From: a plasmid
Sequence record: NZ_CP106961.1
DNA length: 64,000 nt
Strand: one strand, 5' to 3'
Position 1 is the first letter of the stretch. Each line of letters opens with the position of its first letter. The position numbers and the translations under genes were made by a program. Shown here one piece after another: positions 14,606 through 51,626 of this stretch. Below the pieces are notes generated by a model, which worked only from the letters and a program-made list of their open reading frames with translations, had not been told where the DNA came from and did no database searches.

Positions 14606-14629
14606 GCCCGCTTCTGGCACAAAGCGGAC
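14606..14629. repeat. Conserved hairpin motif, copy A (gcccgcttctggcacaaagcggac), immediately 3-prime of the vapC stop
   Basis: Stem CCGCTT/AAGCGG with loop CTGGCACA. It is one of five copies in the window. Confidence 0.8.
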
Positions 14630-14656
14630 ATCCCCCTTTCTCCGTTCTGTCTGCCG

Positions 14657-15073
14657 TCAGTTAACCCAGTCTTCCAGCACCAGGCCCGGCACGCGTTCAA
14701 ACTCTCTCACATTATTCGTCACGAGGACGGCACCAGCAGCAATCGCATGCCCGGCAATTGCCGTGTCGTTAGGGCCGATTGGCGTCCCGGCGAGGCGCAG
14801 CGCGACCTTAATGTCCGTGGTGGCGTCCACCGCAGCGCTGTCCCAGGGCAGGATGGCATCGAGGCGGGCGCAGAATGCGTCAACCAGCTGGATGTGGCGC
14901 GGGGAGGCTTTCGGGCCGGTGGCGCCGAAGCGCATCTCGGAATAGGTGATGGCCGAGATCACGATACGCTGGTTGCGCAGCACCGCCTGCTCCAGACGCT
15001 TCAGGACGGCTTCCGGCTGCTCGCGCATGATGAATGAGCAGATACAGGTGTCCAGCATATAGGTTTTATTCAC
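14657..15073 (-). CDS. vapC: VapC toxin (PIN-domain RNase) of a VapBC/MvpAT-type toxin-antitoxin pair
   Basis: PIN motifs (MLDTCICSF, VLVTNNVREFERVPGLVLEDW) resemble MvpA/VapC. The ATG overlaps the vapB stop (ATGA). Confidence 0.85.
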   Translation of the reverse strand: MNKTYMLDTCICSFIMREQPEAVLKRLEQAVLRNQRIVISAITYSEMRFGATGPKASPRHIQLVDAFCARLDAILPWDSAAVDATTDIKVALRLAGTPIGPNDTAIAGHAIAAGAVLVTNNVREFERVPGLVLEDWVN

Positions 15074-15300
15074 AGATCAAATCGTCCTTCGTCGGTGACA
15101 ACGTCCTCGCGCTCCGCCATAAAGTCCGGGTCTGCCTTCTCGAGCTGCGCGAACGAGCCCCAGGTCGGCCGGACGGGACGCAAAATAATGCTGTCCCCTT
15201 CCCGGACGATCTCCAGCTCGCTCACCCCCTCAAAATCGAGATCGCGGGGGAGGCGGATGGCGCGGTTGTTGCCATTTTTAAAAATGGATACGGTTCTCAT
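15070..15300 (-). CDS. vapB: VapB antitoxin (SpoVT/AbrB-type)
   Basis: 76 aa. The N-terminal sequence MRTVSIFKNGNNRAIRLPRDL is typical of VapB/MvpT antitoxins. It is translationally coupled to vapC. Confidence 0.85.
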   Translation of the reverse strand: MRTVSIFKNGNNRAIRLPRDLDFEGVSELEIVREGDSIILRPVRPTWGSFAQLEKADPDFMAEREDVVTDEGRFDL

Positions 15301-15369
15301 TTACGTTACACCCCATAATGCATGCGCCCGATACTCTGGGCATGGCCTGTGAAAAGCACAGGCGAATAA

Positions 15370-15470
15370 AAAAACACCACCTACCATTGCATAGGTATAG
15401 TATATGCAGATGTGAGGCATATGTATAGAGTCTAGATATGCAGATGTATGGCATATGGATATGGTCAGCC
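15370..15470. promoter_or_regulatory. Direct repeats (ATATGCAGATGTRWGGCATATG x2-3) upstream of vapB. This is a putative vapBC operator and promoter.
   Basis: The repeats are read from the sequence directly upstream of the vapB start. Toxin-antitoxin operons are typically autoregulated at such repeats. Confidence 0.4.
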
Positions 15471-15799
15471 TATACGGAGTATTCTCTTTTTTGCGCAGAT
15501 CCGAAAAAAGGTAAAGTCGGATCTGGACTGAGTAACCGTATGGAGGGGGATGGAAATACGGTAAGAGGGAGTCAAAGCAAAAGGCAGGTAGGAACGAAAG
15601 GTCCGCCTTGAGCGAGGAGCGGAACTTCACTCATACTCCCTCAGTTGATTGGATTAAAATTATCGTGCTGTCACCCACTCAGCTTCGCTGTAAGGGTGAC
15701 CAGCGAAAATTAAGCACAAATTTCTGAGATACAGGTTTTGCCGTCGTAAGACGAAATATTGGGCAGACAGTATTCGATCTCAGAGTCAAGCTCACTTAC

Positions 15800-16189
15800 T
15801 TATTTATCGACCATCAGCGGTACATCTTCCATTCTTGCGCCGCCGTTCAGCCGGAATGTGATAGTGATAATTTTCGGCAACGAAGTGGGTTCCAGGCCAC
15901 ACCACTTATTCATTGCACGGAGCGTTTCTTTCTCAAACACATCGGCGGGCTGCGCTGATAAGATTATGATGTTTTCCGCACACCCTTTTGTATTCACAGT
16001 GTATGAAGCCCTTACAACCCCCTCAATCCGGCCAGCCTGTGCTTTTGCAGGATAATAGGGCTGGTTCACCGTGGCGGATTTACCTGCCTTTGTGTCTCCA
16101 GGCGCATGTTGCTGGCCCGACAGTGTTTGCTTGTGAACACACCCTGTTGCCAGCATAGCCAGCGTTATAGCCATCATTAAACGTTTCAT
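15800..16189 (-). CDS. TonB C-terminal-domain family lipoprotein
   Basis: Signal peptide with a lipobox (MKRLMMAITLAMLATGC). The C-terminal part is TonB_C-like. An AAGGAAAAG ribosome-binding site lies upstream. Confidence 0.55.
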   Translation of the reverse strand: MKRLMMAITLAMLATGCVHKQTLSGQQHAPGDTKAGKSATVNQPYYPAKAQAGRIEGVVRASYTVNTKGCAENIIILSAQPADVFEKETLRAMNKWCGLEPTSLPKIITITFRLNGGARMEDVPLMVDK

Positions 16190-16353
16190 TCTTTTCCTTG
16201 ATAAAGCAGCCACCTGTAGCATCCCCAGCAAAATGAATACCGGACGTATTATTAGCAACTCGATAATAATACGTATTCATAGAAAGGTGCATGTGTGAGT
16301 ATTCCTGCAAAACTAACCATCAACCTTTAGAGAGTCTCTGGCAACCCCAACTT

Positions 16354-16375
16354 CCGCTTCTGGCACAAAGCGGAC
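16354..16375. repeat. Conserved hairpin motif, copy B (ccgcttctggcacaaagcggac)
   Basis: Same stem and loop as copy A. It lies about 180 bp 3-prime of the GIY-YIG gene. Confidence 0.8.
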
Positions 16376-16558
16376 CAGTGCGCAGAGCTAGGTCCGATAA
16401 GAGCGAGGAGCAGACGTTGACCATTCTGTTCAACGTCTTCAGACTCAGCCCTTAACTCTCAGTTCTTCGCGAATTGGACCTTGAAAGTAGATGCTACCTT
16501 TATGGTAAAGATCAACTGACTCATGGTGATGAGTCAGTTAAAATCTGTAAAAAAAATC

Positions 16559-17299
16559 TTAGACAATCCCAACTTTTACAAATGGACTTCCGTGACTGCG
16601 TGTTTTTTTGATTAATTTACCCACATACAAGTCTCTAACTTCTTTAGCTGCAATTCGGCCAACAAACTCGGAGCGATTGGTATTCATAGTAATGTTTAAA
16701 TCACGCGTAAAGTATTGTTGAGAGCCAGCCTTCACCCAGCACTGTATTTCATAGACCTCCATGACAAGCCCGCCATAAGTTGCGTAAGCAAATTTAAGTC
16801 TCTCGTCTTTAGGGATATTTGCCCAAATGCCGCGAGTGGACTCATATAGCTCCAATGCGCTCATACCAGACTTGTATGTACTGTTTAAAAGAAAGGCGAG
16901 CCCGGCATGTTCACATGCGATTTCGGTTTCTTCTTTGAGTAGCAAGTGCTGGAGTTCATCAAGCGTGATGCGTCCCATAAGAGAGCTACTTCCTCGAACT
17001 TTATTAGTAAGTTCTCCCACACCTAAGAGATCGATACATGTTGCCTCAACAAGTTTGGCCGTTGATTCATCCATTCCATGGCGAAGAATATCGATACCCA
17101 AGTTTTTTCTTTCTAAAAGCTCTTTGATCCGCTCAGATTTCGGAGATTCATCAGGACGTTTGATATGGTCAAGACAGCGATCGGACTTCCCCTTTCCAAT
17201 GTAAAAAGGCTTCTTGAACTCATCTTCCTTGTCATAAAAGGCATATACATAGTACTTAGCCAAATCCAAAGATTTTGTATATTTTGATAAATCCCTCAA
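16559..17299 (-). CDS. GIY-YIG nuclease-family protein (246 aa)
   Basis: The N-terminal sequence YVYAFYDKEDEFKKPFYIGKGKSDRCLDH matches the GIY...YIG motif. The C-terminal 150 aa are uncharacterised. Confidence 0.65.
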   Translation of the reverse strand: MRDLSKYTKSLDLAKYYVYAFYDKEDEFKKPFYIGKGKSDRCLDHIKRPDESPKSERIKELLERKNLGIDILRHGMDESTAKLVEATCIDLLGVGELTNKVRGSSSLMGRITLDELQHLLLKEETEIACEHAGLAFLLNSTYKSGMSALELYESTRGIWANIPKDERLKFAYATYGGLVMEVYEIQCWVKAGSQQYFTRDLNITMNTNRSEFVGRIAAKEVRDLYVGKLIKKTRSHGSPFVKVGIV

Positions 17300-17423
17300 T
17301 GTTTGTTTCCTTAGCTACCGATGTTGAAATTAATTTCATTATCGGCATGACGTAATAGAACTTAAGTCCTGGTTGAGAAAGTGAACTCCTTACAATTTAT
17401 TCTTGTGCCACGATGTTAGTCAC

Positions 17424-17446
17424 GTCCGCTCCTGGCACAAAGCGAC
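17424..17446. repeat. Conserved hairpin motif, copy C (gtccgctcctggcacaaagcgac), upstream of the GIY-YIG gene
   Basis: Variant copy that retains the loop CTGGCACA. Confidence 0.7.
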
Positions 17447-17877
17447 CTTTGTCATGAATCCTGACTCACTGTCTGAGGCAGGAGCAGGCCCGCTGAATGC
17501 GGCTTTAGCGGCAGGAAGCGTTAGATAACGTTGAGCTGAACGGCGCCGTAAGCCCGGCTCCGCCGGTTATATTCTGATATATGGCGCTCCCCATTCCTGT
17601 CAGTGTATCGAATCTCACAGGTGAACCAGCCGCAGACTGCTTCCATAGGCTGCAGGTTAAAACGTTTGCTTACTTTCTGAATCATGAGGGCTTTTCTGGT
17701 GGCCCAATATCCGGTTAACGATAACTTTCAGAAAATGAACCCTGCCTCTCTGGGATGATTAGGATTAACTAATCATCTTATGGAATTGTAAAATCCCGTA
17801 TGAAATTAAAAAATCTGTGCGGGATTGCCGTTTTATTAAGGCTGCACTGCAGTCAATTAAAGAGAGGGAGACTGAAT

Positions 17878-18300
17878 ATGCGTGTTCGCCTGACCACTGA
17901 AAACGATGCTATATCACTGATTACTATCGATATTGTTGCCCAGAGCCAGCCAAAAGGTGCGGCGCAAATCCGCATCTGGTGTGCCTGGTCTGTCTGTTAT
18001 ATTGCCGAACTGCAGGGAATAGCGATGGGATATGGCGTGCTGAACTACCATTTCTTCGGCTACGGCTTTATTGAAATGCTGATGGTAGGGGAACACTACC
18101 GCCGCAGGGGTATCGGTCTGGCGTTGATTGCAGCATTGAAGTCCCGCTGCCAGCACCCGAAGCTGTTCACCTCCACCCATCGTTCTAACCTGCCAATGCA
18201 ACGGCTGCTGTTGAACGCCGGATTTATCCCCAGCGGTCAGGTCGACAATCTCGATGACGGGGACCCGGAAGCGATATTTTTTATTCCAGCCTTAACGTAG
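17878..18300 (+). CDS. GNAT-family N-acetyltransferase
   Basis: Acetyl-CoA-binding motif (RRRGIGLALI). Start chosen at MRVRLTTEND, which has a ribosome-binding site. Confidence 0.7.
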   Translation: MRVRLTTENDAISLITIDIVAQSQPKGAAQIRIWCAWSVCYIAELQGIAMGYGVLNYHFFGYGFIEMLMVGEHYRRRGIGLALIAALKSRCQHPKLFTSTHRSNLPMQRLLLNAGFIPSGQVDNLDDGDPEAIFFIPALT

Positions 18301-18759
18301 CGCAGAGAGAAGGGTACACAGACACCCATATCCAGGGTGCCAGGCTCAGCGAGGCCAGGGTTTTAGCGACCTCTGTATCTAACGGGAAGTGCCTCTCTGA
18401 GAAGGTTCTGGCAGTGAATCAGGCAAAAACTGGCCGGGTGTAAGGTAAATCATCTTTCTGATAAATCGGGTCTTTACCTTCAGGCTGCGTCTGAGATTGC
18501 TGCCGATAATTGCTAACTGTTTTACGCAAATATTCCCGCAACGCTACCGGCTGCTGCCGCTCGGCTTGATGCGGCATCATCCTGACCTTTTCCCGGCTGT
18601 CTTTGACCGTCATCCCCGGCCAGCATTCCTCAACGTATCCGATAAGAAACCTCCCGATTGCCTTGCTGTCGATTGCGTTATCAATCATGGCAGCTAAGCT
18701 TAGTTGACACTTACCCGGTCGGGCAGCCACACCTTTCCGGCCGCAAGCAGGAGAAGATC

Positions 18760-19893
18760 ATGAAAGCAGTTATTTACAACGGTCCCTATGATGTAAAAGT
18801 TAAAGACGTGCCGGATGCAAAAATTGTTCGCCCCACCGATGTGCTTGTCCGCATTACCACCACCAATATTTGTGGATCGGATTTGCACATGTACGAGGGT
18901 CGGACCAGCTTTGAGCAGGGACGTATTTTGGGGCACGAAAACCTGGGTGAGGTGGTTGAAATTGGCTCAGGAGTGGAGCGTGTTAAGGTCGGTGACTATG
19001 TCTGTCTGCCATTTAATGTCGGATGCGGTTTTTGCGAGAATTGTGAAAAAGGTCTGACCGGTTTTTGCCTCACCACCAATCCCGGTACTGTGGGCGCGGC
19101 CTATGGTTTTGCTGAAATGGGCTCCTGGGAGGGTGGTCAGGCGGAACTGCTTCGGGTCCCCTTTGCAGACTTTAACTGCCTGGTGCTTCCGCCTGACGCA
19201 GTAGAAAAAGAAGATGATTATGTGATGCTCTCTGACATTTTCCCTACCGGCTGGCATGCGACAGAACTCGCCGGATTAAAGCCTGGCGAAAGCGTAGCCA
19301 TTTACGGCGCGGGGCCGGTGGGTCTGATGGCCGCACACTCAGCCATGATAAAAGGCGCTTCACAGGTATTTGTAGTGGATACACACCAGGACCGTTTAGC
19401 GCTGGCAGAGAAAATGGGGGCGACGGGCATCAATGCGACCGGCGATGAAGCCGTGCAACGAATTCTCGACTTAACTGACGGACGCGGCACTGACTGTGGC
19501 TGTGAATGCGTGGGCTATCAGTGCTGTAACAAACATGGCCATGAAGATAATTCGGTCACTATGAACAGCCTCGTTGCATCAACCAAAGCAACCGGGGGAA
19601 TTGGTGTGGTTGGCGTGTTTATCCCGCAGGATCCGGGAGCTGCATCAGACCTTTCCAAAGAAGGTAAGATGCCGTTTGATTTCGGCAGTTTTTGGTTTAA
19701 AGGACAGTCAATCCGCACCGGCCAGGCGAACGTCAAAGCCTATAATCGTCAGCTGGCCCGTCTGATCCATCAGGGTAAAGCCAGCCCGGGCGGCATAATC
19801 TCACACCGTCTTTCACTTGCTGAGGCGCCTGAGGGATATAAGCACTTTGACGATCGCGATGAGGGATGGACGAAGGTTATCCTTAAGCCTTAA
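18760..19893 (+). CDS. fdhA: Glutathione-independent formaldehyde dehydrogenase (zinc-dependent ADH family)
   Basis: MKAVIYNGPYDVKVKDVPDAKIVRPTDVLVRITTTNICGSDLHMYEGR with a GHE zinc motif and a GAGPVG Rossmann motif. Confidence 0.8.
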   Translation: MKAVIYNGPYDVKVKDVPDAKIVRPTDVLVRITTTNICGSDLHMYEGRTSFEQGRILGHENLGEVVEIGSGVERVKVGDYVCLPFNVGCGFCENCEKGLTGFCLTTNPGTVGAAYGFAEMGSWEGGQAELLRVPFADFNCLVLPPDAVEKEDDYVMLSDIFPTGWHATELAGLKPGESVAIYGAGPVGLMAAHSAMIKGASQVFVVDTHQDRLALAEKMGATGINATGDEAVQRILDLTDGRGTDCGCECVGYQCCNKHGHEDNSVTMNSLVASTKATGGIGVVGVFIPQDPGAASDLSKEGKMPFDFGSFWFKGQSIRTGQANVKAYNRQLARLIHQGKASPGGIISHRLSLAEAPEGYKHFDDRDEGWTKVILKP

Positions 19894-20197
19894 CTGACGC
19901 TGATCGGTTATAAAAGTTAAATCGGAACAATTAAACCGGAACAATGTAGAAATATCGACGGGATACCATTGCGTATCCTGTCATAATATTTATCTTCTGC
20001 TGCCAGGCTCGCCCCTGTATCTATTGTGATGTTTAATGACGCATTATGAATATTATCAGGACCTGTGAATAGCGCCCGATCTTCTTCAGGCATAAACGAA
20101 ATAAACGCTATTCATGTAATAACGATGAGAGTGGGTGAGAATGAAGTGCGATATTATAAGGATTCTATGTAACATCATGTCGGGATAGATCCAGAGT

Positions 20198-20231
20198 CAA
20201 AGCCACCTGAGTATTACAGGTGGCTTTTAAA
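20198..20231. terminator. Bidirectional rho-independent terminator between fdhA and the hydrolase gene
   Basis: aaagccacctgagtattacaggtggcttttaaa forms a GC stem flanked by A and T runs. Confidence 0.65.
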
Positions 20232-20249
20232 CGATTCTGAGCTGCGTTT

Positions 20250-21386
20250 TTACCTTAAGCTGGTTTTGAAAAACTGTTCAAACCTGGCAAAAGGGATCTT
20301 ACCTGCAGCGTTGTCGTATAAGTCCACGTGGTTTGCGCCGGGGACGATCACAAGCTCTTTTTCAGTGCTGCCAACCGCTTTGTAGGCATCTTCTGCAAAA
20401 TAGCGCGAGTGCGCTTTTTCACCTGTAACAATCAACACAGGAATAGTGATTTCATTTGCGTAGCTAAGCAGCGGCATATTCATAAACGACAAGGGCATCG
20501 TTGCATTCCATGCGCCATTAGAGTTAACAGAACGCCCATGGAAGCCGCGTGGCATTCTGTAATAATCAAAAAACTCTTTCAGTACCGGGTGTGGATTCGC
20601 GGGTAATGTTTCCGGCAGAATTCGCTCAGAAGCGCTTACGCTGCCATTCTTATCCACATTAATATCGTGACTACCGCGGGCGATAGTTCCGCTTTCAGCA
20701 TCTTTCCAGCGCTGCTCGTTCAGGTACTGTAATACGGCACGGCGATCGGCTGTTGAATAACGGTCTTTGCCATCACCAACGCCATGTCCCATCGCCCGGC
20801 TCATGTCGTACATCACGCTGGTCGCAACTGCTTTTACGCGTGTATCCATCGCCGCCGCATTGAGTGCCATGCCTCCCCAGCCGCAAATACCGAGTAATCC
20901 AATACGATGGCGATCCACCTCTTTTTGTAATCCAAGGAAATCAACCGCCGCGCTAAAGTCCTCAGTGTTGATATCCGGAGAGGCGACATTACGCGGATAG
21001 CCACCACTTTCACCCGTGTAAGAAGGATCGAATGCCAGCGCAACAAATCCCTGTTCGGCCAGGGTCTGTGCATACAGGCCGCTTGATTGCTCTTTGACCG
21101 CACCGAAAGGACCACTTAATGCAATCGCAGCCAGTTTACGTTCGCCCCGGTTTTTGGGGATGTAAAGATCCCCTACTAATATGATCCCGTAACGGTTCTG
21201 GAATGCCACCTTGCGATGATCAACCTTATCGCTCTCTGCAAAGGTTTTATCCCATTTTTCTACCATTGAAACAGGCGAGTTCGGATTAGATGTGTCAGCA
21301 TAACTCATTGTCGTAACTCCACTTAATGATACGCATAGCAGCATAGCGGGTAGCGCGGCTGTCAGCTTTCTGGTGAAAACATTCAT
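20250..21386 (-). CDS. Secreted alpha/beta-hydrolase family protein
   Basis: Signal peptide followed by a GxCxWG nucleophile-elbow-like motif (LGICGWGG). 378 aa. Confidence 0.6.
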   Translation of the reverse strand: MNVFTRKLTAALPAMLLCVSLSGVTTMSYADTSNPNSPVSMVEKWDKTFAESDKVDHRKVAFQNRYGIILVGDLYIPKNRGERKLAAIALSGPFGAVKEQSSGLYAQTLAEQGFVALAFDPSYTGESGGYPRNVASPDINTEDFSAAVDFLGLQKEVDRHRIGLLGICGWGGMALNAAAMDTRVKAVATSVMYDMSRAMGHGVGDGKDRYSTADRRAVLQYLNEQRWKDAESGTIARGSHDINVDKNGSVSASERILPETLPANPHPVLKEFFDYYRMPRGFHGRSVNSNGAWNATMPLSFMNMPLLSYANEITIPVLIVTGEKAHSRYFAEDAYKAVGSTEKELVIVPGANHVDLYDNAAGKIPFARFEQFFKTSLR

Positions 21387-21585
21387 TTAAATTCCCCTGA
21401 AAAAGAAAAGTGAGGTACCGGTTTCATACGGAGAGTACTGCTGTGCTTTGATGCAATGCGCTCATTATAGGTAGCAGAAATAGTGCTGATTAGAGGGTAA
21501 AAATTGCTAGGATTAATAGCATATTGTTATAAATGAAGGGCCGCAGCAGACATCATTTGCGGCCAGATATTCTGAGGACGCGCAA

Positions 21586-22470
21586 ATGGCAAAACGGGAA
21601 AACTATAATGAGCTCTACTTGTTTATGCAGGTGGTGCGGGAGGGCAGTTTCACTGCAGCGGCACATCGTCTTGGACTTGCACAATCAGGCGTTAGTCGTT
21701 CTGTCCGTGAACTTGAAGAAAGGCTGGGTATACAGCTTCTGGTTCGCACTACGCGCAGGCTGTCGTTAACACAGGCAGGTGAGCAACTGTATCAGACAAC
21801 AGAATCCGGATTTGATGCTTTAGATACGGGTTTTGCCACGCTGGCGTATTACCGGAATACCCCGTCCGGTACGGTACGCATCAATGCCAGCCAGCATGCT
21901 ATTGATAAAGTTCTTTTACCGAAGCTGGCGCTATTTAAGCACCGTTACCCCGATATCAGGCTTGAACTCATCAGTGAAAGCCGGTTCGTCGATATTATCG
22001 CTGAGCGGTTTGATGCCGGCGTGCGGCTGGGGCCGGAGGTAGGACAGGGCATGGTCGCGGTGCGTATTACACCTGACATGGAGATGGTTGTTGTAGCTAC
22101 GCCCGAGCATTTTCGTCGCTATGGCTTTCCACAAACACCGGCTGATTTAGTGATTCATCCTTGTATAGCCTACCAGTTTGCCGATGGTAGCCTTTATCAG
22201 TGGGAACTCCTTCAGGACGGTAAAAAAATAACGCACCGACCACAAGGACAGTGGGCCTTTTCTGACAGCTACATGGAAGCAAAAGCAGCCAGACTGGGGC
22301 TGGGGCTGGCTTATGTCCCGGAGGAACTGGTCGCTGATGATTTAGAGCAAGGCAATCTTATCAGGGCGTTGCCACGTTACAGCCAGCGCCTGGAAGGTTC
22401 ATTCCTGTATTATCCTCACCGCAATGTGTCGCCGGCACTGAGAGTCGTCATTGATATACTGAAAATCTGA
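21586..22470 (+). CDS. LysR-family transcriptional regulator, divergent from the hydrolase gene
   Basis: N-terminal HTH (FTAAAHRLGLAQSGVSRSVRELEERLG) and a LysR substrate-binding domain. Confidence 0.85.
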   Translation: MAKRENYNELYLFMQVVREGSFTAAAHRLGLAQSGVSRSVRELEERLGIQLLVRTTRRLSLTQAGEQLYQTTESGFDALDTGFATLAYYRNTPSGTVRINASQHAIDKVLLPKLALFKHRYPDIRLELISESRFVDIIAERFDAGVRLGPEVGQGMVAVRITPDMEMVVVATPEHFRRYGFPQTPADLVIHPCIAYQFADGSLYQWELLQDGKKITHRPQGQWAFSDSYMEAKAARLGLGLAYVPEELVADDLEQGNLIRALPRYSQRLEGSFLYYPHRNVSPALRVVIDILKI

Positions 22471-22521
22471 AGTTTAGCTATTTATATTCTTCGTTGTTCC
22501 GCTCTTTGTTATCGGAATAAC

Positions 22522-22545
22522 GTCCGCTTATGGCACTAAGCGGAC
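22522..22545. repeat. Conserved hairpin motif, copy D (gtccgcttatggcactaagcggac). It has a perfect 8-bp stem.
   Basis: It lies between the LysR stop and the vapC remnant. Confidence 0.75.
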
Positions 22546-22573
22546 ATTCTTACCTTCTGCATTCTTAATGTCG

Positions 22574-22870
22574 TCAGTTCACCCAGTCTTCCAGCACCAG
22601 GCCCGGCACCCGCTCAAACTCTCTCACATTATTCGTCACCAGAACCGCACCGGCGGCAATGGCGTGCCCGGCGATAGCCGTGTCGTTCGGGCTGATTGGC
22701 GTCCCGGCGAGGCGCAGCGCGACCTTTATATCCGTGGTCGCATCAACCGCGCCGAGGCCTTAGGACCGGTGGCACCGAAGCGCATTTCGGAGTATGTAAT
22801 TGCCGAGACATCGATGCGCTGGTAGCGCAGCACTGCATGCTCCAGGCGCACGGCGGAAGGCCTTAACGCA
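22574..22870 (-). pseudogene. vapC: vapC 3-prime remnant. It is about 85% identical to the vapC 3-prime end at 14657-14830, with an internal deletion.
   Basis: DNA alignment by eye: tcagttcacccagtcttccagcaccaggcccggcac... matches the end of the intact vapC. Confidence 0.7.
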
Positions 22871-22887
22871 GGACCGGGTGTCCGCTC

Positions 22888-23508
22888 TCATTTCGTCATC
22901 TTCCCACCTTTCGGCTCCGCCCGGGCCAGGATCAGCAACTCGGCCTGCAGGGCGCGGTTTTCTTCCCGGGCGTCCTTCAGCTCCCCCTTCGTTTCCTTCA
23001 GCTGTGCTGCCAGATGTTCGCCGGTTGCCGTCAGGCGGGCCACCTGCTCTCGCAGCGGCAGCGCCTCATCCCGCAGCTCCCGGACGTCCTGCAGCAGGCG
23101 GTCCCGCTCGGCCACCACCTCGCGCAGCACCGCCAGCTCGCTCTCCAGGGCGGTCACTTTCGCCAGGGCCTCATCCCGCTCCCGGTCGGCCTGCGCAATA
23201 TCCGCGTCAGCCTGCTCGCGCGCCGCCAGGGTGACAGCGTCCGCCTGTTTCACAGCCGCCTGCCACAGCAGCCCCAGCTGGCCGGTCAGGAGCTGCGCCA
23301 GCTCCGGCGGCAGCGCCGGGGCCTGCTCGGCGCGCTGCTCCCGTTGCCGGGCGCGGAACGCGCGCATCACCGGGGAGATATGCGACAGGGAGCCGCCGCC
23401 GAGGTGGGCGCGGACCTGATCGTTGGTCGGGTTCGGGGTGCCGACGGCGATGAGGGCGGTGGCGGCGTCCTCGATACGGCGGACGGTTTCGGGTGGCAGT
23501 GTGCTCAT
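22888..23508 (-). CDS. KfrA-like protein (N-terminal DNA-binding domain plus coiled-coil), very GC-rich
   Basis: The N-terminus MSTLPPETVRRIEDAATALIAVGTPNPTNDQVRAHLGGGS resembles KfrA_N. The rest is an Ala/Glu/Arg-rich coiled-coil. Confidence 0.5.
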   Translation of the reverse strand: MSTLPPETVRRIEDAATALIAVGTPNPTNDQVRAHLGGGSLSHISPVMRAFRARQREQRAEQAPALPPELAQLLTGQLGLLWQAAVKQADAVTLAAREQADADIAQADRERDEALAKVTALESELAVLREVVAERDRLLQDVRELRDEALPLREQVARLTATGEHLAAQLKETKGELKDAREENRALQAELLILARAEPKGGKMTK

Positions 23509-26941: not shown

Positions 26942-27346
26942 TTATTTAATTAAGAAGTCATCAATATTGCCGCCGTTGGCAGCGTGTTCAGCCAGAACTT
27001 TTGGTGTACGGCCCTGGCCAGTCCATGTTTTAGTTTCACCGTTTTCATCGGTGTACTGGTATTTGGCCGGACGTGCTGCACGCTCTTTTTTAGGTTTTGT
27101 CTGGCCGGTGGAGTATTCAAGCAACTCTGACGGGTCAATACCATCATCCAGCATCAACTGGCGCAACTTATTCAGCTTCTCTGTACGTTCCGAAATCTCG
27201 TTACGTTTTGCTTCTTCTTCATCACGACGTTCCGAAACGATGACATTAAACTTCTCCAGAATGTCTTCCAGAGTTTCGAGAGGCAACTCACGCGCCTGAG
27301 CTCGCAGTGAACGGATGTTATTTAGTGTTTTCAGTTCTTCAGACAT
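26942..27346 (-). CDS. hns: H-NS family nucleoid-associated protein (plasmid-borne H-NS/StpA homologue)
   Basis: [20 protein letters not shown]...[20 protein letters not shown] is closely similar to E. coli H-NS. Confidence 0.9.
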
Positions 27347-27942
27347 TTTAGCTCCAGAGAGTAGTAATCATAATCTCAGTTGATTATGAAACATTAAAAA
27401 ATAAAATCAACAGAAAGCCGACTGAATTAATGAACAATGTCGAACGGCTTCACTTCTTTATGTTACTTAAAATGAATGAACTGCGCTTGAAGAGCTTCTG
27501 AGATATTGAGGCTTGTTATACGAGTAGTAACAGTCGCATGTAATCCATACCTGATAGATGGAAACGATACTTAAAGATGAAAGACAGGCAGGAATTTACC
27601 CGGCATATTTATGATAAGGAAAAGTTGGAAATTCAAAATTAGTTACAAAATCCTTAGGGCAACTCATACAACACGCCTGGTTTAAAAAGCATCAACCCTG
27701 ACTACTTGAGAGTGTTTTGATAAGCGTGGGTCAGGGGTAAGGTTAACCCTTATATGAAGATAAACTGAGTTCAGCTTTAATGTAAGGTATTCGCTGATGG
27801 TGGCTATGGCGAGCATAATGCTGAGACAGGGCAATTTTGATCGTAGATAAATAAACGCACCCGGTTAAAGTTTTACTTACCATTGCAGTAGTAGTGGTTT
27901 ACCGGGTGCGCATATTTTATGCTCTCTGTCGGTTACTTTGTG

Positions 27943-28431: not shown

Positions 28432-28433
28432 CG

Positions 28434-37263: not shown

Positions 37264-38304
37264 ATGGTTTCGACACATATTGGTTTTCCGGTTGAGACAG
37301 TCACAGTGTTTATTGCGCTGTCACTCGGTGCCATTTTCATTGACCTGTTCATGCACCGTCATGACAAGCCAATTTCACTGAAAAGTGCCGCGCTGTGGTC
37401 CGTTTTCTGGGTCATTGTCGCGATGGCATTTGCCGGGTTCCTGTACATCCATCACGGTGCTGAAGTCGCGAGCCTGTTCGTCACCGGCTATGCACTAGAA
37501 AAGGTGCTTTCTGTCGACAACCTGTTCGTGATGATGGCCATTTTCTCCTGGTTCTCGGTACCGGATCGTTTCCGTCACCGTGTGCTCTACTGGGGCATTA
37601 TTGGCGCCATCGTCTTCAGGGGCATTTTTGTGGCCATCGGTGCTGGCCTGCTGAGCCTGGGGCCGTATGTTGAAGTGGTATTCGCCCTCATTGTCGCCTG
37701 GACGGCTGTCATGATGCTCAGAAGTGGCGGTGATGAAGAGGAAGTCGAAGACTATTCGCAGCATCTTGCATACCGGATGGTTAAACGCTTCTTCCCGATC
37801 TGGCCAAAACTGCAGGGTCACGCTTTCCTTCTGTCTCAGAAAGAAGTGGATGCCGAGCTGGCAAAACCTGAAAACAAAGATGTGACCATCGGTCGCGGTA
37901 AGAAAGCATGGCGCTATGCCACGCCGCTGATGCTCTGTGTGGCAGTAGTGGAGCTCTCCGATGTCATGTTTGCGTTTGACTCGGTACCGGCCATCATTGC
38001 CGTCAGCCGTGAGCCACTGATTGTCTACAGTGCCATGATGTTTGCTATCCTGGGCCTTCGTACCCTGTATTTCGTACTCGAAGCCCTGAAGCAGTATCTG
38101 GTGCATCTGGAAAAAGCGGTGATCGTGTTGCTGTTCTTCATCGCAGCCAAACTGGGGCTGAACGCAACAGACCATATCTGGCACCACGGGTATAATATTG
38201 CGGCCACCACCAGCCTGTACGTCGTGCTGGGTGTCCTGGCCGTCGGGATCATTGCAAGCGTCATGTTCCCGGGCAAACCAGAAACAGAGGGAAAGGAGAG
38301 CTAA
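37264..38304 (+). CDS. terC: Integral membrane protein TerC
   Basis: 346 aa with multiple transmembrane segments. Gene order matches the ter operon. Confidence 0.85.
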   Translation: MVSTHIGFPVETVTVFIALSLGAIFIDLFMHRHDKPISLKSAALWSVFWVIVAMAFAGFLYIHHGAEVASLFVTGYALEKVLSVDNLFVMMAIFSWFSVPDRFRHRVLYWGIIGAIVFRGIFVAIGAGLLSLGPYVEVVFALIVAWTAVMMLRSGGDEEEVEDYSQHLAYRMVKRFFPIWPKLQGHAFLLSQKEVDAELAKPENKDVTIGRGKKAWRYATPLMLCVAVVELSDVMFAFDSVPAIIAVSREPLIVYSAMMFAILGLRTLYFVLEALKQYLVHLEKAVIVLLFFIAAKLGLNATDHIWHHGYNIAATTSLYVVLGVLAVGIIASVMFPGKPETEGKES

Positions 38305-38352
38305 TCTCCTGAGAATTTCACTAATTCCATAACTAATGCATGAGGCTGAACT

Positions 38353-38931
38353 ATGAGTGTTTCTCTTTCGAAAGGCGGTAACGTATCCCTGAGCAAAGCC
38401 GCTCCAACCATGAAAAATGTTCTGGTTGGTCTGGGCTGGGATGCACGTTCTACTGACGGGCAGGACTTCGACCTGGATGCGTCCGCATTCCTGCTGAATG
38501 CGAACGGCAAAGTGCGAAACGATGCAGATTTCATTTTCTATAACAACCTGAAGTCAGCTGACGGCTCTGTTACCCATACCGGTGATAACCGTACCGGTGA
38601 AGGCGATGGCGATGATGAATCCCTGAAAATCAAACTGGATACTATCCCGGCCGACGTGGACAAAATTGTGTTCGTGGTGACCATCCATGATGCACAGGCC
38701 CGTCGTCAGAGCTTTGGCCAGGTGTCCGGCGCGTTTATCCGCCTGGTGAACGACGATAACCAGACTGAAGTCGCTCGTTACGATCTGACTGAAGATGCCT
38801 CCACAGAAACCGCCATGCTGTTTGGCGAACTGTATCGTCACAATACCGAATGGAAGTTCCGTGCGGTCGGCCAGGGTTATGCCGGTGGTCTGTCTTCCGT
38901 GTGTGCCCAGTACGGCATTAACGCGTCCTGA
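38353..38931 (+). CDS. terD: Tellurite resistance protein TerD
   Basis: 192 aa, [15 protein letters not shown]...[13 protein letters not shown]. Confidence 0.9.
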
Positions 38932-39000: not shown

Positions 39001-39576
39001 ATGGCAGTTTCTCTCGTTAAAGGCGGTAACGTATCCCTTACTAAAGAAGCACCAACCATGAACGTAGCGATGGTTGGTCTGGGATGGGATGCGCGTGTCA
39101 CTGACGGCCAGCCATTCGACCTGGATGCGTCTGTGTTCGCGGTAGGTGATGACGGTAAAGTGCTTTCTGATCAGCACTTCATTTTCTTCAACAACAAAAC
39201 CAGCCCTGACGGCGCCGTGGAACACCAGGGCGACAACCGTACTGGTGAAGGTGATGGCGATGATGAGTCGGTCAAAATTGATCTGACCAAAGTGTCAGCT
39301 GACATCAAAAAACTGGTGTTCGCCGTGACCATCTATGACGCTGAAGTCCGTAAGCAAAACTTCGGCATGGTGAGCAACAGCTTCATGCGTGTCTATAACA
39401 ATGACAACGCCGCGGAGATCGCACGCTTCGATCTGTCTGAAGACGCATCCACCGAAACCGCTATGATCTTTGGCGAACTGTACCGCCATGGCGCCGAATG
39501 GAAATTTAAAGCCGTAGGCCAGGGTTTTGCCGGTGGATTATCGGCACTGGCTTCCCAGCACGGTGTTAATATCTAA
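39001..39576 (+). CDS. terE: Tellurite resistance protein TerE
   Basis: 191 aa paralogue of TerD ([15 protein letters not shown]...). Confidence 0.9.
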
Positions 39577-42794: not shown

Positions 42795-43787
42795 ATGAGC
42801 CTGATGCCTGATGACGAACAGGAACGTAATCTTCTGGCAGCAGCGATCCCGCTGGATGAGACATTTCTGCCGGCGCTGTCCGGCAATAACGTTCCGGTAA
42901 ATCCGGCCCGGGCTTACCTATTGTCCCTTAATTCCCAACGTAGCCGGCAGACCATGGCTTCGTTCCTCGGGATTGTCGCCAAAATGCTTGGTGCCGGTAG
43001 CGCTGACACCTGCAACTGGGGCAGCATTCGCCGGTATCACGTTATGGTAATCACCGAGTTACTGCGCGATACTGGCCGGGGGATGGCAACTATTAACACC
43101 TATCTGTCGGCTCTTAAGGGCGTAGCGAAGGAAGCCTGGATGCTCCGCCTGATGGACGTTGAGAGCTTCCAGCACATCCGGGCGGTACCGAACCTGCGTG
43201 GCAGCCGGCTGCCAAGCGGTCGGGCCCTGCCGCCGGAGGAGATCCGCGCGTTGTTTGCCGTGTGTGAGGCCGATCGCAGCTGCCTCGGGCCGAGGGACGC
43301 GGCGATGCTGGCGGTTATCCTGGGATGTGGCCTGCGGCGGTCCGAGGCCGTGGGCCTAGATTTACGTGACGTTGTCACGCACAATCGGGCGCTACGGGTG
43401 CTGGGGAAGGGGAACAAGGAGCGTCTGGCCTACGTCCCGGCCGGGGCCTGGCAGCGGCTGCAGATCTGGATCGATGAGGTCCGGGGCGAAACCCCGGGGC
43501 CGCTGTTCACGCGGATCCGCCGCTTCGGGGATGTGACACTGAACCGGCTCACCGACCAGGCGGTGTACCATATCCTGCAGGTGCGTCAGGGGCAGGCCGG
43601 GATCGGTAAGTGCTCGCCACATGACCTGCGCAGGACCTTCGCAACTGCCATGCTGGATAACGGTGAGGACTTAATTACGGTTAAAGATGCGATGGGTCAC
43701 GCCAGCGTTACGACCACCCAACAGTACGATCGTCGCGGAGAACAGCGTCTTCGAGATGCCCGCGATAGGCTCAATCTTGTCAAATGA
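42795..43787 (+). CDS. Tyrosine-type site-specific recombinase / integrase
   Basis: C-terminal catalytic motifs (LRRSEAVGL...HDLRRTFAT...GHASVTTTQQYD). GC-rich. Confidence 0.75.
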   Translation: MSLMPDDEQERNLLAAAIPLDETFLPALSGNNVPVNPARAYLLSLNSQRSRQTMASFLGIVAKMLGAGSADTCNWGSIRRYHVMVITELLRDTGRGMATINTYLSALKGVAKEAWMLRLMDVESFQHIRAVPNLRGSRLPSGRALPPEEIRALFAVCEADRSCLGPRDAAMLAVILGCGLRRSEAVGLDLRDVVTHNRALRVLGKGNKERLAYVPAGAWQRLQIWIDEVRGETPGPLFTRIRRFGDVTLNRLTDQAVYHILQVRQGQAGIGKCSPHDLRRTFATAMLDNGEDLITVKDAMGHASVTTTQQYDRRGEQRLRDARDRLNLVK

Positions 43788-44245: not shown

Positions 44246-44274
44246 AAAAACACCGCCGAAAGGCGGTGTTTTTG
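44246..44274. terminator. Rho-independent terminator 3-prime of betT (bidirectional hairpin)
   Basis: aaaaacaccgccgaaaggcggtgtttttg. Confidence 0.7.
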
Positions 44275-44276
44275 TA

Positions 44277-46896: not shown

Positions 46897-47369
46897 TGCG
46901 TGAATTTAATACCACCCGGCAAACCATACACAGGGTAAAGGCAGGGCAATAATGATCCTGCGTTCACAGCTGGACGGTCTGCTATAAAGTGAGGTGCAGA
47001 CATTGTCACAGACTTCCGCGCCTCGCTCATAGCAGTCAGAAAGCGTTGTTGCTGGCTGCTCTGTGCTGTGAGTTCAACTGTTCGATGCAACGCTCAGACG
47101 CGCTCAGCGCGTTTCTGACATGTCCTCGTTAAAAACAGTAACAAACCACCCGAAAATGCACGCCAGAAACGCTACGTAAGAATCTATCCTATGCTGGATA
47201 TGCACTCAACTGAATAACGCCTGGTTTCAGTCTGTTTTATCGGCATCAGCCTTCTTTCTGGGTAATTTCGGAGAGGTCACTTGCTGATTACTTTGCGTGC
47301 GTCGCGTGAGCCAGGGCAACCCGATATGGCCGTATCCGCCCGCAAAAAAGTGGCCCTCATCGTCGACTT

Positions 47370-48834: not shown

Positions 48835-49023
48835 ATGCAAGAAGGTTTCTACTGGATACGGCACAACGGCAGGGTTCAGGTAGCTTACTACACCGATGGC
48901 GAAACGGAAGACCTGCAAACGGGGCGGATCGTCAGGGGGATATGGTATCTGACGCGGGGTTTCGATATCTGCGATGACGGTGAGGCTGAGGTATTACAGG
49001 GTCCGCTGTCGCCACCTCTTTGA
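48835..49023 (+). CDS. Hypothetical small protein (about 62 aa)
   Basis: MQEGFYWIRHNGRVQVAYYTDGETEDLQTGRIVRGIWYLTRGFDICDDGEAEVLQGPLSPPL. The upstream part of the ORF has atypical composition. Confidence 0.35.
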   Translation: MQEGFYWIRHNGRVQVAYYTDGETEDLQTGRIVRGIWYLTRGFDICDDGEAEVLQGPLSPPL

Positions 49024-49328
49024 CAGACACGGGAACTGGCGTTTCGCTTTGAGCCTGACTAGATTTAACTGTGGTGGATCCCCCTGTGCGGCGGGACAAT
49101 CCGGTTGATGTATGTAAATATGCTTGCGGCTCGTATAACCGGTAACGAGCCACCGGGAGGCACCCGGCACCTGTTTCAGAACCTGGGAAGTGCGTTTTGA
49201 GCCCATCCGTCCGGACAGGCTTTTTTATACCCGCTTCGAAACCGGTGCTATGCTTAAACTGTAACCAGGCCATAGCACCTACCCCTTATCCTCATCGGTG
49301 TACGGTCCGGGGACATGGTGAACACTTT

Positions 49329-50042
49329 TTAACATCCTTTACCCATGGTGATCGACTTTTTCTTCAGGTCGATCACCCACACTTTCGTGTTGTACCACCA
49401 CACTTCGTAATAACCGTCCTCCTGTGTCTCCCTCAGCCCTACCTGCTCGCCCCTGAACGCCTTGCCTGCGCTCAGACTGACACCCTTCACGCTCAGCTTC
49501 CCGCTGATATCCACCTTCCTGACCATCACACCCCCGTCGTATTCCGATGGCGTTGTGTGGCTGTTGTACTACCGCGCGGATGGCTGGTAGCGCGAGGCCG
49601 GAACCGTCATATCCAGCCCCTCATGGGGCTGTTCGAGGTTATAGGCTGTCCGCCAGTGGTCGAAGGCGCGCTGCAGCTCGCTGCTGTCCGCGAACCACTT
49701 ACCCTGCAGGACTTCTGCCTTCAGGCGGTGGTGAAAACGCTCCAGCTTGCCCTGGGTCTGCGGGTGATAAGGCCTTGAGTGGCTCACCCGGATCCCCAGG
49801 CGCATCAGCCACAGCTCGAGCGCCGTCCAGGTGCCGGTGGTGTCGCCCCAGGGTTCGCCGTTGTCCATGGTCATCCGGTCCGGCAGGCCGTAGCGTTCAA
49901 ACACCCCGACCAGCTGCTGCTGCACGGTCTCACGCCGTTCATCGGGGCAGTGCATCAGGCATAGGGAAAGCCGGGTGGTCTTCCAGCCAGCGTTTGATCT
50001 TGCGGGCCCCCAGCGTTCGTGACGGGAATGGGCCATGCGCAA
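49329..50042 (-). pseudogene. IS481-family transposase, 5-prime truncated and frameshifted (rve core plus C-terminal extension)
   Basis: MTMDNGEPW...HSRPYHPQTQGKLERFHHRLK in 49569..50042. The C-terminal extension (YYEVWWYNTKVWVIDL) is in another frame at 49329..49529. Confidence 0.55.
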
Positions 50043-50124
50043 CAGGTCAGCGATGTCGTCTGATGAACGGTTCGGGGAATGACGGGGTGTGCGGGGACGG
50101 TCATGAAGACCGGATAAACCGTCG

Positions 50125-50535
50125 TCAAAGGTTAATTATCTGGCCAGAACCCTGAGCTTCCATCACTGGAAGCACAGCCCCAATTCCCCACAGCACGCCC
50201 TTGATGTTAACGTCAATCGTACGTTCCCATTCATCCTGTTTGCCGGCCGCAAGCGGTGAAAGTGGCATGATGCCCGCATTGTTAATCAGAACGTCAACAC
50301 GCCCCCAGTTATCAAGCGCTGACTGCACGAAATGAGCCATGGACAGTCTGTTTGTGACATCCAGCTCACGCGCTTCAGCCATACCGCCGGCGCTGCGGAT
50401 TTCTGCTGCAATGGCTTCGATACGATCCAGTCTGCGCGCCCCTAATAGCACTCTCGCACCTGCTTTTCCAAGCTCTCTGGCAATGCCTTCCCCAATGCCA
50501 CTTGACGCGCCGGTAATTAATATAACTTTATCCAT
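50125..50535 (-). pseudogene. SDR-family oxidoreductase, 3-prime truncated at the IS481 fragment junction
   Basis: MDKVILITGASSGIGEGIARELGKAGARV...NNAG cofactor motifs. Only 136 aa remain and the catalytic YxxxK region is missing. Confidence 0.7.
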
Positions 50536-50633
50536 GATGTGCTCCTTCAGTTGAGTTCAGAGAGATGATAGACCTTTATGATTAGTTCCAGTATCCTGCT
50601 TTTACTGGACTCAGTGATTAGCAGAATTAAACA

Positions 50634-51533
50634 ATGAAAATTGATCTCAATCTTTTACCTGTTTTTATCGCGGTTGCTGAAGAGCGTAATTTCACCATAG
50701 CCGCAGCCCGGCTGGGGGTTACGCGCTCGGCGGTTAGTCAGGGAATACGGCGGCTTGAGGATACTTTCGGCACAATGCTGGTAATGCGGACAACACGTTC
50801 AGTAAACCTGACTGAAGCGGGAGAACGACTGCGTACATCCCTGTCATTATCTTTATCCAGCATTGACGCTGCGTTCGAAGATATTGCATCCGACAGCACG
50901 CCACGTGGACTTCTGAGGATCGCGGTGACCTCCATAGCTGAAGAGTTTCTTTCAGGTCCGCTGATCGCCTCGTTTGCGGCTGCTAATCCAGCCGTGACGA
51001 TCGATATTGTCGTGATAGATGAGGAATTTGATATTGTGGCCGCTGGTTATGATGCTGGCGTAAGGCTCGGAGATGTGATCGAGAAGGATATGATTGCCGT
51101 CCCGCTTACAGAAAAGCAACGTGAAATGGTGGTTGCGTCCCCATCCTATCTCACTGCTTGTAGCGCCCCTCTTCATCCGCGTGAGCTTGTACATCATCAG
51201 TGTATCGGCTGGCGTCCTTCCCCGGATGTTGCTCCTTATCGCTGGGAATTTGAGGAGAACGGGAGAGCTTTCGACGTGGCGGTAGAACCGCGAATAACAA
51301 CTAATGACCTGCGTCTCATGCTGAGGCTGGCTCTTGCCGGTGGAGGTATAACATTTGCCCCTGAGGAAACATTCAGGCCGTATATTGAAAATGGTCAACT
51401 TGTTTCAATGCTTGATGATTTTCTTCCCCATTTTCCTGGCTTTTATCTGTACTTTCCTCAACGCCGGAATATAGCGCCAAAACTACGCGCCCTAATCGAA
51501 CATGTCAGGCAATGGCAGCAACCGTATGCTTAA
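50634..51533 (+). CDS. LysR-family transcriptional regulator (second, unrelated to the one at 21586)
   Basis: HTH FTIAAARLGVTRSAVSQGIRRLEDTFG. Divergent from the SDR gene. Confidence 0.85.
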   Translation: MKIDLNLLPVFIAVAEERNFTIAAARLGVTRSAVSQGIRRLEDTFGTMLVMRTTRSVNLTEAGERLRTSLSLSLSSIDAAFEDIASDSTPRGLLRIAVTSIAEEFLSGPLIASFAAANPAVTIDIVVIDEEFDIVAAGYDAGVRLGDVIEKDMIAVPLTEKQREMVVASPSYLTACSAPLHPRELVHHQCIGWRPSPDVAPYRWEFEENGRAFDVAVEPRITTNDLRLMLRLALAGGGITFAPEETFRPYIENGQLVSMLDDFLPHFPGFYLYFPQRRNIAPKLRALIEHVRQWQQPYA

Positions 51534-51602
51534 TGGTAAGCGCTAAATACTTTGTAACGTAAACCAGTTTTCTGAGGACTGACTCATTTAGTTATATGTT
51601 AT

Positions 51603-51626
51603 GTTCGCTTCTGGCACAAAACGGAC
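51603..51626. repeat. Conserved hairpin motif, copy E (gttcgcttctggcacaaaacggac)
   Basis: Same loop CTGGCACA. It lies between the LysR stop and the vapC remnant. Confidence 0.7.

Follow-up and report, generated by a model that had tools for sequence, protein, structure and literature searches.

We analyzed a stretch of 64,000 nucleotides of a plasmid (sequence record NZ_CP106961.1), called the window below, in which a short palindromic motif, the A site, recurs five times between positions 14606 and 51626. We lean towards the reading that this motif forms the core of a double-stranded site for site-specific recombination, and that A and a second palindrome, B, which has the same arms and a different centre, would be heterospecific cores of one enzyme that mediates cassette exchange. 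The most likely candidate for this enzyme is a tyrosine recombinase of ~200 amino acids (aa). More tentatively, the sites may belong to an uncharacterised cassette-exchange system parallel to, and distinct from, integrons. In such a system a recombinase consisting of the catalytic domain only would act on 28-bp sites with shared arms and unlike spacers (A, B and further types), and would shuffle cargo among plasmids, the defence hotspots of P2-like and lambdoid prophages, genomic islands and alphaproteobacterial chromosomes. Both proposals are drawn from sequence comparison.

Anatomy and orientation of the sites

A search of the window for the 24-mer with up to three mismatches returned exactly five matches, every one on the + strand, starting at 14606, 16352, 17424, 22522 and 51603 with 1, 1, 3, 2 and 2 mismatches, respectively, whereas even the best of 100 shuffled controls contained none. 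The five copies noticed in an earlier, sequence-only reading of this DNA are thus confirmed, with none expected by chance. That reading had placed the second copy at 16354, which is the start of its CCGCTT core; the copy is there, but it begins at 16352.

The pairing of the stem, previously described as conserved, is retained in only part of the set. The strict stem CCGCTT/AAGCGG is unbroken in three of the five copies only, and upon single-strand folding the copies at 14606, 16352 and 22522 form a hairpin (−6.4 to −8.7 kcal/mol, z −2.4 to −5.4). The copies at 17424 (z −0.7) and 51603 (z +0.4) form no hairpin because their right or left arm is mutated; in both, the pairing is lost and the centre is retained. 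Copy 1 (GCCCGCTTCTGGCACAAAGCGGAC; 14606–14629, +; −6.4 kcal/mol) is found at the junction of a Cu-binding-protein cassette and a vapBC cassette. Copy 2 (16352–16375, +), which also folds, is followed 16 nucleotides (nt) further on by a B site, and the two form a composite A-linker-B junction. The unfolded copy 3 (17424–17447, +), with a degenerate right arm (GCGACC), separates a GIY-YIG cassette from a five-gene module, whose right end is marked by copy 4 (22522–22545, +; −8.7 kcal/mol), after which comes a vapC 3' stub. Copy 5 (51603–51626, +), degenerate and unfolded, lies between a LysR-family gene (50634–51533) and another vapC 3' stub.

The motif can be written as GTCCGCTT-yTGGCACa-AAGCGGAC. 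In a frequency table of 172 A copies, the arms GTCCGCT and AGCGGAC are near-invariant and the central TGGCAC is invariant, the latter being partly imposed by the way the copies were selected. Positions 8–9 and 16–17 vary, and the flanking nucleotides lengthen the symmetry (A-A/T-Y ... A-T), which results in a 28-bp site with a 10-8-10 layout. With its inverted arms, its asymmetric centre and breaks between positions 9 and 16–21 (see below), the site has the generic layout of a tyrosine-recombinase core. In Enterobacterales, ~30 nt upstream of A are conserved as well (..TTGATTAAC..CAT....ATG..AGCAAC) and B often follows 15–19 nt after A, so that the composite extends over roughly 100 nt.

The B palindrome, which the sequence-only reading had missed, combines the arms of A with another centre, GTCCGCT-(a/g)TGAGCGAGG-AGCGGAC. 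Its three clear copies are all on the + strand, at 13953–13976 (GTCCACTATGAGCGGGAAGCGGAC), at 15601–15624 between vapBC and a gene for a TonB_C-domain protein, and at 16392–16415 at the left end of the GIY-YIG cassette, where identity to Citrobacter and Enterobacter plasmids starts at 16392. At 59418–59441 (+) there is a weak site resembling B, the left arm of which is degenerate. Two further weak B-like palindromes, whose centres have diverged, converge within 46977–47037 (46977–47001, +; 47014–47037, −), and this pair includes the sole minus-strand site-like element of the window.

It had been suggested that the hairpin be examined for covariation across homologues. A substitution in one arm is matched by a compensating one at roughly five times the expected frequency, but nearly all of this signal comes from pair 8/17. 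Shuffling gives marginal results, with counts of 76 (pair 8/17) and 20 (pair 2/23) in 2,000. Only pair 8/17 and, marginally, pair 2/23 exceed the shuffles, and we therefore do not take the weak covariation as proof of a hairpin. Since it is the sequence of the arms that is kept, and they covary little, they fit a protein-binding site of two-fold symmetry better than a purely structural hairpin.

The sites are strongly co-oriented. In the window, the + strand carries all five A sites as well as the three clear B sites. Among genomic loci with two or more A sites, 37 of 39 carry all copies on one strand, and adjacent A pairs have the same orientation in 58 cases and the opposite one in 2, irrespective of the orientation of the genes. 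Integration of circles by site-specific recombination would produce precisely this pattern. In plasmid pPAG04 of Pantoea agglomerans (A sites at 36074 and 39255–39278), the A sites on either side of repA (37429–38367) have opposite orientations, and this single case hints at a replication-linked bias in site orientation.

Cassette junctions in plasmids and prophages

Over 13.9–22.5 kb of the window, sites and genes follow one another in the order B, Cu-binding gene, A, vapBC, B, TonB_C gene, A-B, GIY-YIG gene, A, five-gene module, A and vapC stub. The first cassette (13977–14605, −) contains a gene for a four-helix-bundle Cu-binding protein (14142–14468). It is followed by the vapBC cassette (14630–15600, −; vapC with a PIN domain at 14657–15073 and vapB at 15070–15300), which extends from an A to a B site, and by a cassette with the gene of the TonB_C-domain protein (15625–16351, −; gene at 15800–16189). 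The GIY-YIG cassette (16392–17447, −) is a mobile unit with B on its left and A on its right. As stated in the sequence-only reading, A copies 2 and 3 bracket its 246-aa open reading frame (ORF; 16559–17299, −), whose GIY-YIG match is LEM-3-like and weak (33 bits). The A-bounded five-gene module (17424–22545) encodes a GNAT protein, a hypothetical protein, a glutathione-independent formaldehyde dehydrogenase, an alpha/beta hydrolase and a LysR-family protein.

Comparison with other plasmids places the ends of these units within the sites. The segment 17422–22553 is 99.6% identical in plasmids of Salmonella, Klebsiella, Enterobacter and Pantoea, and its two ends fall on A copies 3 and 4; in an Acinetobacter plasmid, only a shorter left-hand portion of the module is present, with the left boundary unchanged. 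Three left and three right contexts of the module were compared. At its junctions, site positions up to 9 follow the left-hand DNA and positions from 16 onwards follow the right-hand DNA. The left arm and the first centre base move together with the left neighbour, the last centre bases and the right arm with the right neighbour. The five-gene module is constantly accompanied by the unusual right arm GCGACC; of the two arms of copy 3, the left one belongs to the GIY-YIG cassette and the right one to the module. At the other end of the module, the site keeps GTCCGCTTA-TGGCAC, and the sequence that follows (TAAGCGGAC, ACAGCGGAC or AAAGCGGAC) varies with the neighbour.

The GIY-YIG cassette behaves similarly. 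Its segment from B to A (16392–17444) is 99.9–100% identical in plasmids of Citrobacter, Enterobacter and Serratia, where it is flanked by a Tn5403 resolvase region and relBE. Identity breaks off within the left arm of B at one end and, in A, somewhere from position 9 to position 21 at the other. An IncHI2 plasmid of E. hormaechei contains the Cu-binding gene and a diverged A site, and then a formaldehyde dehydrogenase gene in the place where the window has vapBC.

Several observations concern the DNA that adjoins these sites. In a Serratia marcescens plasmid (~1288–2500 of the locus), the IS30-like insertion sequence (IS) ISCfr4 is inserted in the left B site of the GIY-YIG cassette, whose left arm is gone; judging from this one plasmid, A and B sites may also attract IS insertions. 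In the Salmonella IncHI2 plasmid pSA18578_MCR9_1 (9101–9844 of the locus), the right context runs into a Tn3-family resolvase gene, and the same right context recurs in two genomes after A sites with unlike left halves, so that the A site also abuts the end of a Tn3-family transposon. The two LysR-family genes of the window (21586–22470 and 50634–51533) differ from each other, and each ends 50–70 nt ahead of an A site and a vapC stub. Genes of this family are recurrent left neighbours of the site in other genomes as well (a cluster of 10 loci).

The same arrangement is found in prophages. All three chromosomal contexts of Escherichia coli that were inspected are prophages, with the site at the point where backbone and cargo meet. 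In lambdoid prophages, it is located downstream of a DUF977 gene and beside the retron Ec67 reverse transcriptase or other cargo, and in the tin/old hotspot of a P2-like prophage, it is located between a DinI-like gene and a KAP NTPase and RES pair. To the right of the site, the lambdoid loci have a common backbone that extends up to it, and to its left they differ; P2-like Z loci behave alike at their hairpins. In P2 itself, an A site (15335–15358) and a degenerate B site (at 17432) flank fun(Z). Phages L-413C, P24E6b and 899 carry other cargo between the same sites, and homology among P2-like phages ends at the sites. An unoccupied site was sought among the P2-like phages compared and none was found, as each of them had cargo. 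The DNA flanked by the sites, be it P2 fun(Z), its counterparts in L-413C, P24E6b and phage 899 or the cassettes of the window, is variable and non-essential.

In the Z region of P2-EC67 (AJ512685), the motif at 92–118 lies under an annotated 'left inverted repeat' (3–115), which ends with the A site, and the 'right inverted repeat' (1255–1345) begins with the B site. Just outside of A, the backbone of P2 (15275–15334) and of AJ512685 (3–91) contains AGCTTACATA inside an imperfect palindrome. This string may resemble the centre of the enterobacterial repetitive intergenic consensus (ERIC) element, and the B centre TGAGCGAGG recalls the ERIC consensus. The short shared strings AGCTTACAT and TGAGCGAGG make us suspect a relation to ERIC.

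The inverted repeats of the P2-like Z region are the same sequence element as the A and B sites. A review (PMC8987985) credits Nilsson et al. with the proposal that site-specific recombination occurs at these repeats (Nilsson, Karlsson & Haggard-Ljungquist 2004, Mol Biol Evol 21:1, a paper known here via the reviews that cite it). As conveyed by these reviews, the description was confined to P2-like phages and some enterobacterial genomes, whereas we find the element also in plasmids, in lambdoid hotspots, in the P2 tin/old hotspot, in islands and in Alphaproteobacteria, together with a candidate recombinase. The overlap with the work of 2004 may be larger than the citing reviews convey. Rousset et al. 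2022 describe the exchange pathway at P2/P4 hotspots as unknown and do not mention the repeats. Our own literature searches by sequence string, protein accession and topic returned no description of the system. Given the limited earlier description in P2-like phages, the breadth of the distribution, the two-site logic and the candidate recombinase appear to be new. The possibility raised by the sequence-only reading, that the motif is the recombination site of an unrecognised cassette system bounding variable cargo, is supported by the breaks within the motif, the prophage junctions and the co-occurrence of a candidate recombinase; the motif does bound variable cargo in the plasmid modules and prophage hotspots compared. 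The word 'unrecognised' holds only in part, however, because the annotation of AJ512685 and the proposal of 2004 precede it.

As for the plasmid as a whole, pLEC-5e18 of Leclercia sp. LSNIH3 (NZ_CP026390.1) is 100% identical to the window across the 10 kb tested. Past ~37 kb, the two are not collinear and have an offset of ~2.3 kb, with A copy 5 mapping 2,267 bp off its predicted position. The window probably comes from a close variant of that plasmid, or differs from it by an indel or IS element. The gene of a group II intron reverse transcriptase/maturase, ltrA (27068–28576, +; WP_001189111.1, annotated in the matching plasmid), adjoins no A or B site.

The candidate recombinase and rival explanations

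A co-occurring recombinase, the search for which had been recommended in the sequence-only reading, was looked for by BLAST clustering of 902 ORFs from 120 8-kb loci selected by the hairpin. One recurrent recombinase emerged, a tyrosine recombinase of ~200–225 aa that consists of the PF00589 catalytic domain only and is present in 3 of the 120 loci. Residues R51, K79, H148-x-x-R151, H174 and Y183 are invariant. The protein scores under every NCBIfam cut-off and hence is neither XerC/D nor an integron integrase, and no sequence relative was found in the PDB. It has more than 8,000 homologues, with 54–57% identity between Entero- and Alphaproteobacteria, and is present in 773–959 of 5,426 E. coli genomes.

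We observed its gene among the sites in E. coli, Pantoea, Shigella and alphaproteobacterial loci. All six enterobacterial loci have a B-like site ~40 nt ahead of the start codon of the recombinase and, after its stop codon, a stem-loop fused to the A centre and one arm (..CAGCCCTGTGCCAGAAGCGGAC). A full, diverged A site follows the gene in four of four alphaproteobacterial loci. In one E. coli genome, the gene resides within the lambdoid DUF977 hotspot, surrounded by A and B sites of one orientation, and that of E. coli Nissle 1917 (protein WP_001305361.1) resides in an island array of like kind; another representative of the enzyme is WP_001752951.1. It is this adjacency that suggests the pairing of the enzyme with the sites.

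Two proteins of the window were considered as recombinases for the sites and rejected. The 330-aa Xer-like enzyme (42795–43787) is unrelated to the candidate, with 24% identity over a partial alignment; it reaches 63 bits against the NCBIfam integron-integrase models, whose cut-off is 265, and the 200-aa enzyme does not match them. The 206-aa 'DNA-binding protein' next to A copy 4 (22888–23508, −) is a KfrA_N coiled-coil protein (77 bits) and no recombinase.

A number of findings speak against recombination at these sites by this enzyme. The recombinase is far rarer than the sites: at ≥60% identity it is present in ~167 plasmids, whereas the motif is present in at least 2,933, and only 3 of 50,697 phage records contain the enzyme. 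Neither the window nor the part of the reference plasmid that was checked (164 of 195 kb) encodes it. The six enterobacterial loci are mutually homologous and hence count as roughly one observation, and the adjacency in Alphaproteobacteria is weak evidence because the sites there are so dense. Homologues with 58–64% identity in Sinorhizobium pSymA, Phaeobacter and C. metallidurans pMOL30 have no canonical sites nearby. Furthermore, the resolution of the breakpoints is set by the spacing of polymorphic positions, between which alone the breaks can be mapped, so that a cut within the centre is unproven. Lastly, a REP-like spread throughout the genome, as seen in Alphaproteobacteria, would be dangerous in the presence of an active recombinase (REP, repetitive extragenic palindromic).

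The distribution of the motif bears on these points and on the rival explanations; with regard to taxa, it is described among the matches listed. The motif, often as the identical 24-mer, is present in Pantoea, Mixta, Leclercia, Citrobacter, Phytobacter, Enterobacter and other Enterobacterales. Many matches are in alphaproteobacterial metagenome-assembled genomes (MAGs) of Xanthobacteraceae, Pseudolabrys and Methyloceanibacter, and one Nitrosomonadaceae genome also has it. Identical 24-mers are found in both Alpha- and Gammaproteobacteria. Among plasmids, at least 2,933 of 72,556 carry the motif, always in unannotated DNA, and Pantoea megaplasmids have 10–11 copies each. A good copy, mostly chromosomal, is present in 2,648 of the 5,426 complete E. 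coli genomes (median 1, maximum 5). The alphaproteobacterial sites are dense, with up to 8 A sites per 8 kb, and form tandem groups of two to three palindromes with distinct centres, a conserved linker and a period of ~45–50 nt. On four alphaproteobacterial MAG contigs, the tandem centres are TTGGCAC.., TTGACCCA and TCGGGGGTA, and the linker TGCACTGCAC joins the first two. Many of these palindromes start with ATG and would read as tiny ORFs (e.g. MSAFGTKRT), which may mislead gene callers.

Known elements of other kinds do not account for the sites. Nothing in Rfam matches at the window sites or in six site-rich loci, which rules out a known RNA family; the only Rfam match of the window above the gathering score is the gammaproteobacterial small RNA STnc100 (49044–49232, +; 55.1 bits). 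No A site is called as an intrinsic terminator and the T-run is absent, which rules out that function, too; the sole terminator call near the sites (~15603–15615, −) is a sub-hairpin of a B site. The TGGCAC centre resembles the −24 box of a sigma-54 promoter, but on direct reading the −12 GC is at the wrong spacing.

The copies beside vapC had suggested a 3' untranslated region (UTR) or regulatory element belonging to vapBC loci. In the window, vapC (14657–15073, −) ends 27 nt from A copy 1, and two stubs of its 3' end adjoin copies 4 and 5, so that three A copies are indeed within 20–30 nt of vapC or what is left of it. The stubs occupy 22546–22849 (−; 81–83% identical to vapC 14657–15073) and 51627–51783 (−; 70.6% identity), and the similarity extends over 22524–22849 and 51606–51783, respectively. 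Two other loci repeat this arrangement. However, nearly all of the ~4,900 plasmid matches to the vapBC region begin at the vapC stop codon and leave the motif out, the ordinary vapBC loci of Klebsiella and Kosakonia (two inspected) have no copy, and vapC is the right-hand neighbour of the motif in only 2 of 106 cases in unrelated genomes, the neighbour families being otherwise extremely diverse, with hundreds of unrelated genes. The motif is therefore not always beside vapC, and a vapBC element is refuted as a general explanation and retains next to no probability. The 'site + 27 nt + vapC end' stubs (at 22522, 51603 and one further locus) most plausibly represent what remains of a common vapBC cassette. 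The main and serious rival, although we think it unlikely, is a REP-like extragenic palindrome with a structural or RNA role, such as protection of mRNA 3' ends, insulation or binding of nucleoid proteins. Module boundaries would then coincide with the motif because near-identical repeats suit rare homologous or illegitimate recombination. The high-copy, intergenic and clustered occurrence in Xanthobacteraceae, Methyloceanibacter and Pseudolabrys MAGs, in tandem A-B-C groups with a period of ~45 nt, is what such repeats would show, as are the preference for gene 3' ends (left neighbour on + versus − 76:41, right neighbour on − versus + 63:43), the diversity of the neighbours and the stable folding of three window copies; REP super-families without an associated transposase have been published for Alphaproteobacteria (PMC3733652). 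Yet the motif is low-copy in E. coli, and each of the contexts inspected in enterobacteria, plasmids and phages, including the three chromosomal ones, is a junction. The description as a common REP- or ERIC-type repeat thus applies in part, namely to Alphaproteobacteria. Co-orientation of 58:2 differs from REP arrays, sequence identity across bacterial classes is unexpected for lineage-specific REPs, neither a terminator T-run nor an Rfam match is present, and two window copies keep their centre despite the lost pairing. Furthermore, 24 bp is a marginal length for RecA-dependent exchange.

Two other explanations involve different enzymes. If the sites were termini of elements that an HUH enzyme mobilises in single-stranded form, in the manner of IS200/IS605 or of REP-associated tyrosine transposases (RAYT), with an orientation set by the direction of replication, then the B...cargo...A units with similar hairpins on one strand, the co-orientation and its reversal across repA in pPAG04 would all be expected. 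We consider this improbable: the breaks are within the palindromes and not at a fixed offset outside of them, stem covariation is weak, two window copies are unfolded, and the BLAST clusters of the 902 ORFs contain no recurrent HUH/Y1 gene but a tyrosine recombinase instead (no search with the Y1 hidden Markov model, PF01797, was made). Less probable still is that the sites are integron attC sites, and the arrays integron cassettes or attC clusters without an integrase. The arrays do share with integrons co-oriented exchangeable cassettes, toxin–antitoxin (TA) cassettes among them, imperfect palindromes, a tyrosine recombinase and many sites without a nearby integrase, and the A-linker-B composite (~65 nt) is inside the attC size range. 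However, attC sites are defined by structure, over 57–141 bp with R''/L''/L'/R' boxes (RYYYAAC/GTTRRRY), whereas the present site is a sequence-conserved palindrome of 24–28 bp that shows only a partial resemblance in flanking AAC/GTT and lacks the GTTRRRY core. The IntI/attI/Pc platform is absent, no integron integrase is present, neither recombinase reaches the integron-integrase models, the recombinase is only ~200 aa long, cassettes may hold several genes with their own promoters and regulators, and there are two site types. Integrons are reported to be absent from Alphaproteobacteria, where these sites are abundant.

Other known systems resemble the sites in part. The dif site has an 11-6-11 layout, and the arms of A and B bear no resemblance to the dif consensus. 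In Acinetobacter pdif modules, which depend on XerC/XerD, 28-bp sites with inverted arms likewise bound recurrent modules, often with TA or resistance genes; unlike them, the present sites have arms unrelated to dif, a centre of 8 instead of 6 bp and direct instead of alternately inverted repeats, and XerC/XerD is not indicated. With REPs, bacterial interspersed mosaic elements (BIMEs) and their RAYT, including the CGTC-tagged REPs (PMC3733652), the sites share short extragenic palindromes that are high-copy and clustered in Alphaproteobacteria and a single-copy enzyme gene flanked by repeats. They differ in being co-oriented and not alternating, in loops of 8–10 nt versus 4–5 nt, in the absence of an unpaired GTAG/CGTC tag (the GTC of CGTC being inside the stem), in the low copy number in E. 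coli and in the associated gene, which encodes a tyrosine recombinase and not an HUH transposase. By way of analogy only, engineered exchange between heterospecific lox or FRT sites, with identical arms and unlike spacers, would be comparable, as there a segment is exchanged and not deleted.

Proposed exchange and its implications

If the motif is a recombination core, as we favour, it would consist of two inverted arms of ~8–10 bp (AYGTCCGCTT) around an asymmetric 8-bp centre (yTGGCACa), and would exist in at least two forms with common arms and unlike centres, A (TGGCAC) and B (GAGCGA). As the two share their arms and not their centres, one enzyme could bind both. The genes between sites would be cassettes exchanged among replicons by strand exchange within the site centre. 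A×A and B×B exchanges would be productive and A×B would not, so that a cassette could be replaced without being deleted. The co-oriented arrays would arise by integration of circular cassettes, or segments would be replaced by a double exchange. The enzyme would most likely be the ~200-aa catalytic-domain-only tyrosine recombinase, the gene of which is itself embedded in site arrays elsewhere. That it binds and cuts A and B sites, where it would cut them, and that A and B would not recombine with each other, we infer from the sequences. As the window is devoid of the recombinase gene, its sites would be either footprints of past events or substrates for an enzyme acting in trans. By analogy with chromosomal integrons (PMC13108822), TA cassettes may stabilise the array.

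The sites could serve annotators as a marker of cassette boundaries, and even if they were merely REP-like repeats, they would still mark recombination-prone junctions. The recombinase and its site might also provide a compact pair for engineering. A system of this kind would explain the recurrence of metal, formaldehyde and toxin–antitoxin modules in otherwise unrelated plasmids. Accessory and anti-phage genes are exchanged with great precision at fixed prophage hotspots and among plasmids of different genera, and a short searchable site with a candidate recombinase would make the mechanism behind this directly testable. If the proposed exchange is true, it would be the mechanism so far lacking for the turnover of genes at phage defence hotspots.

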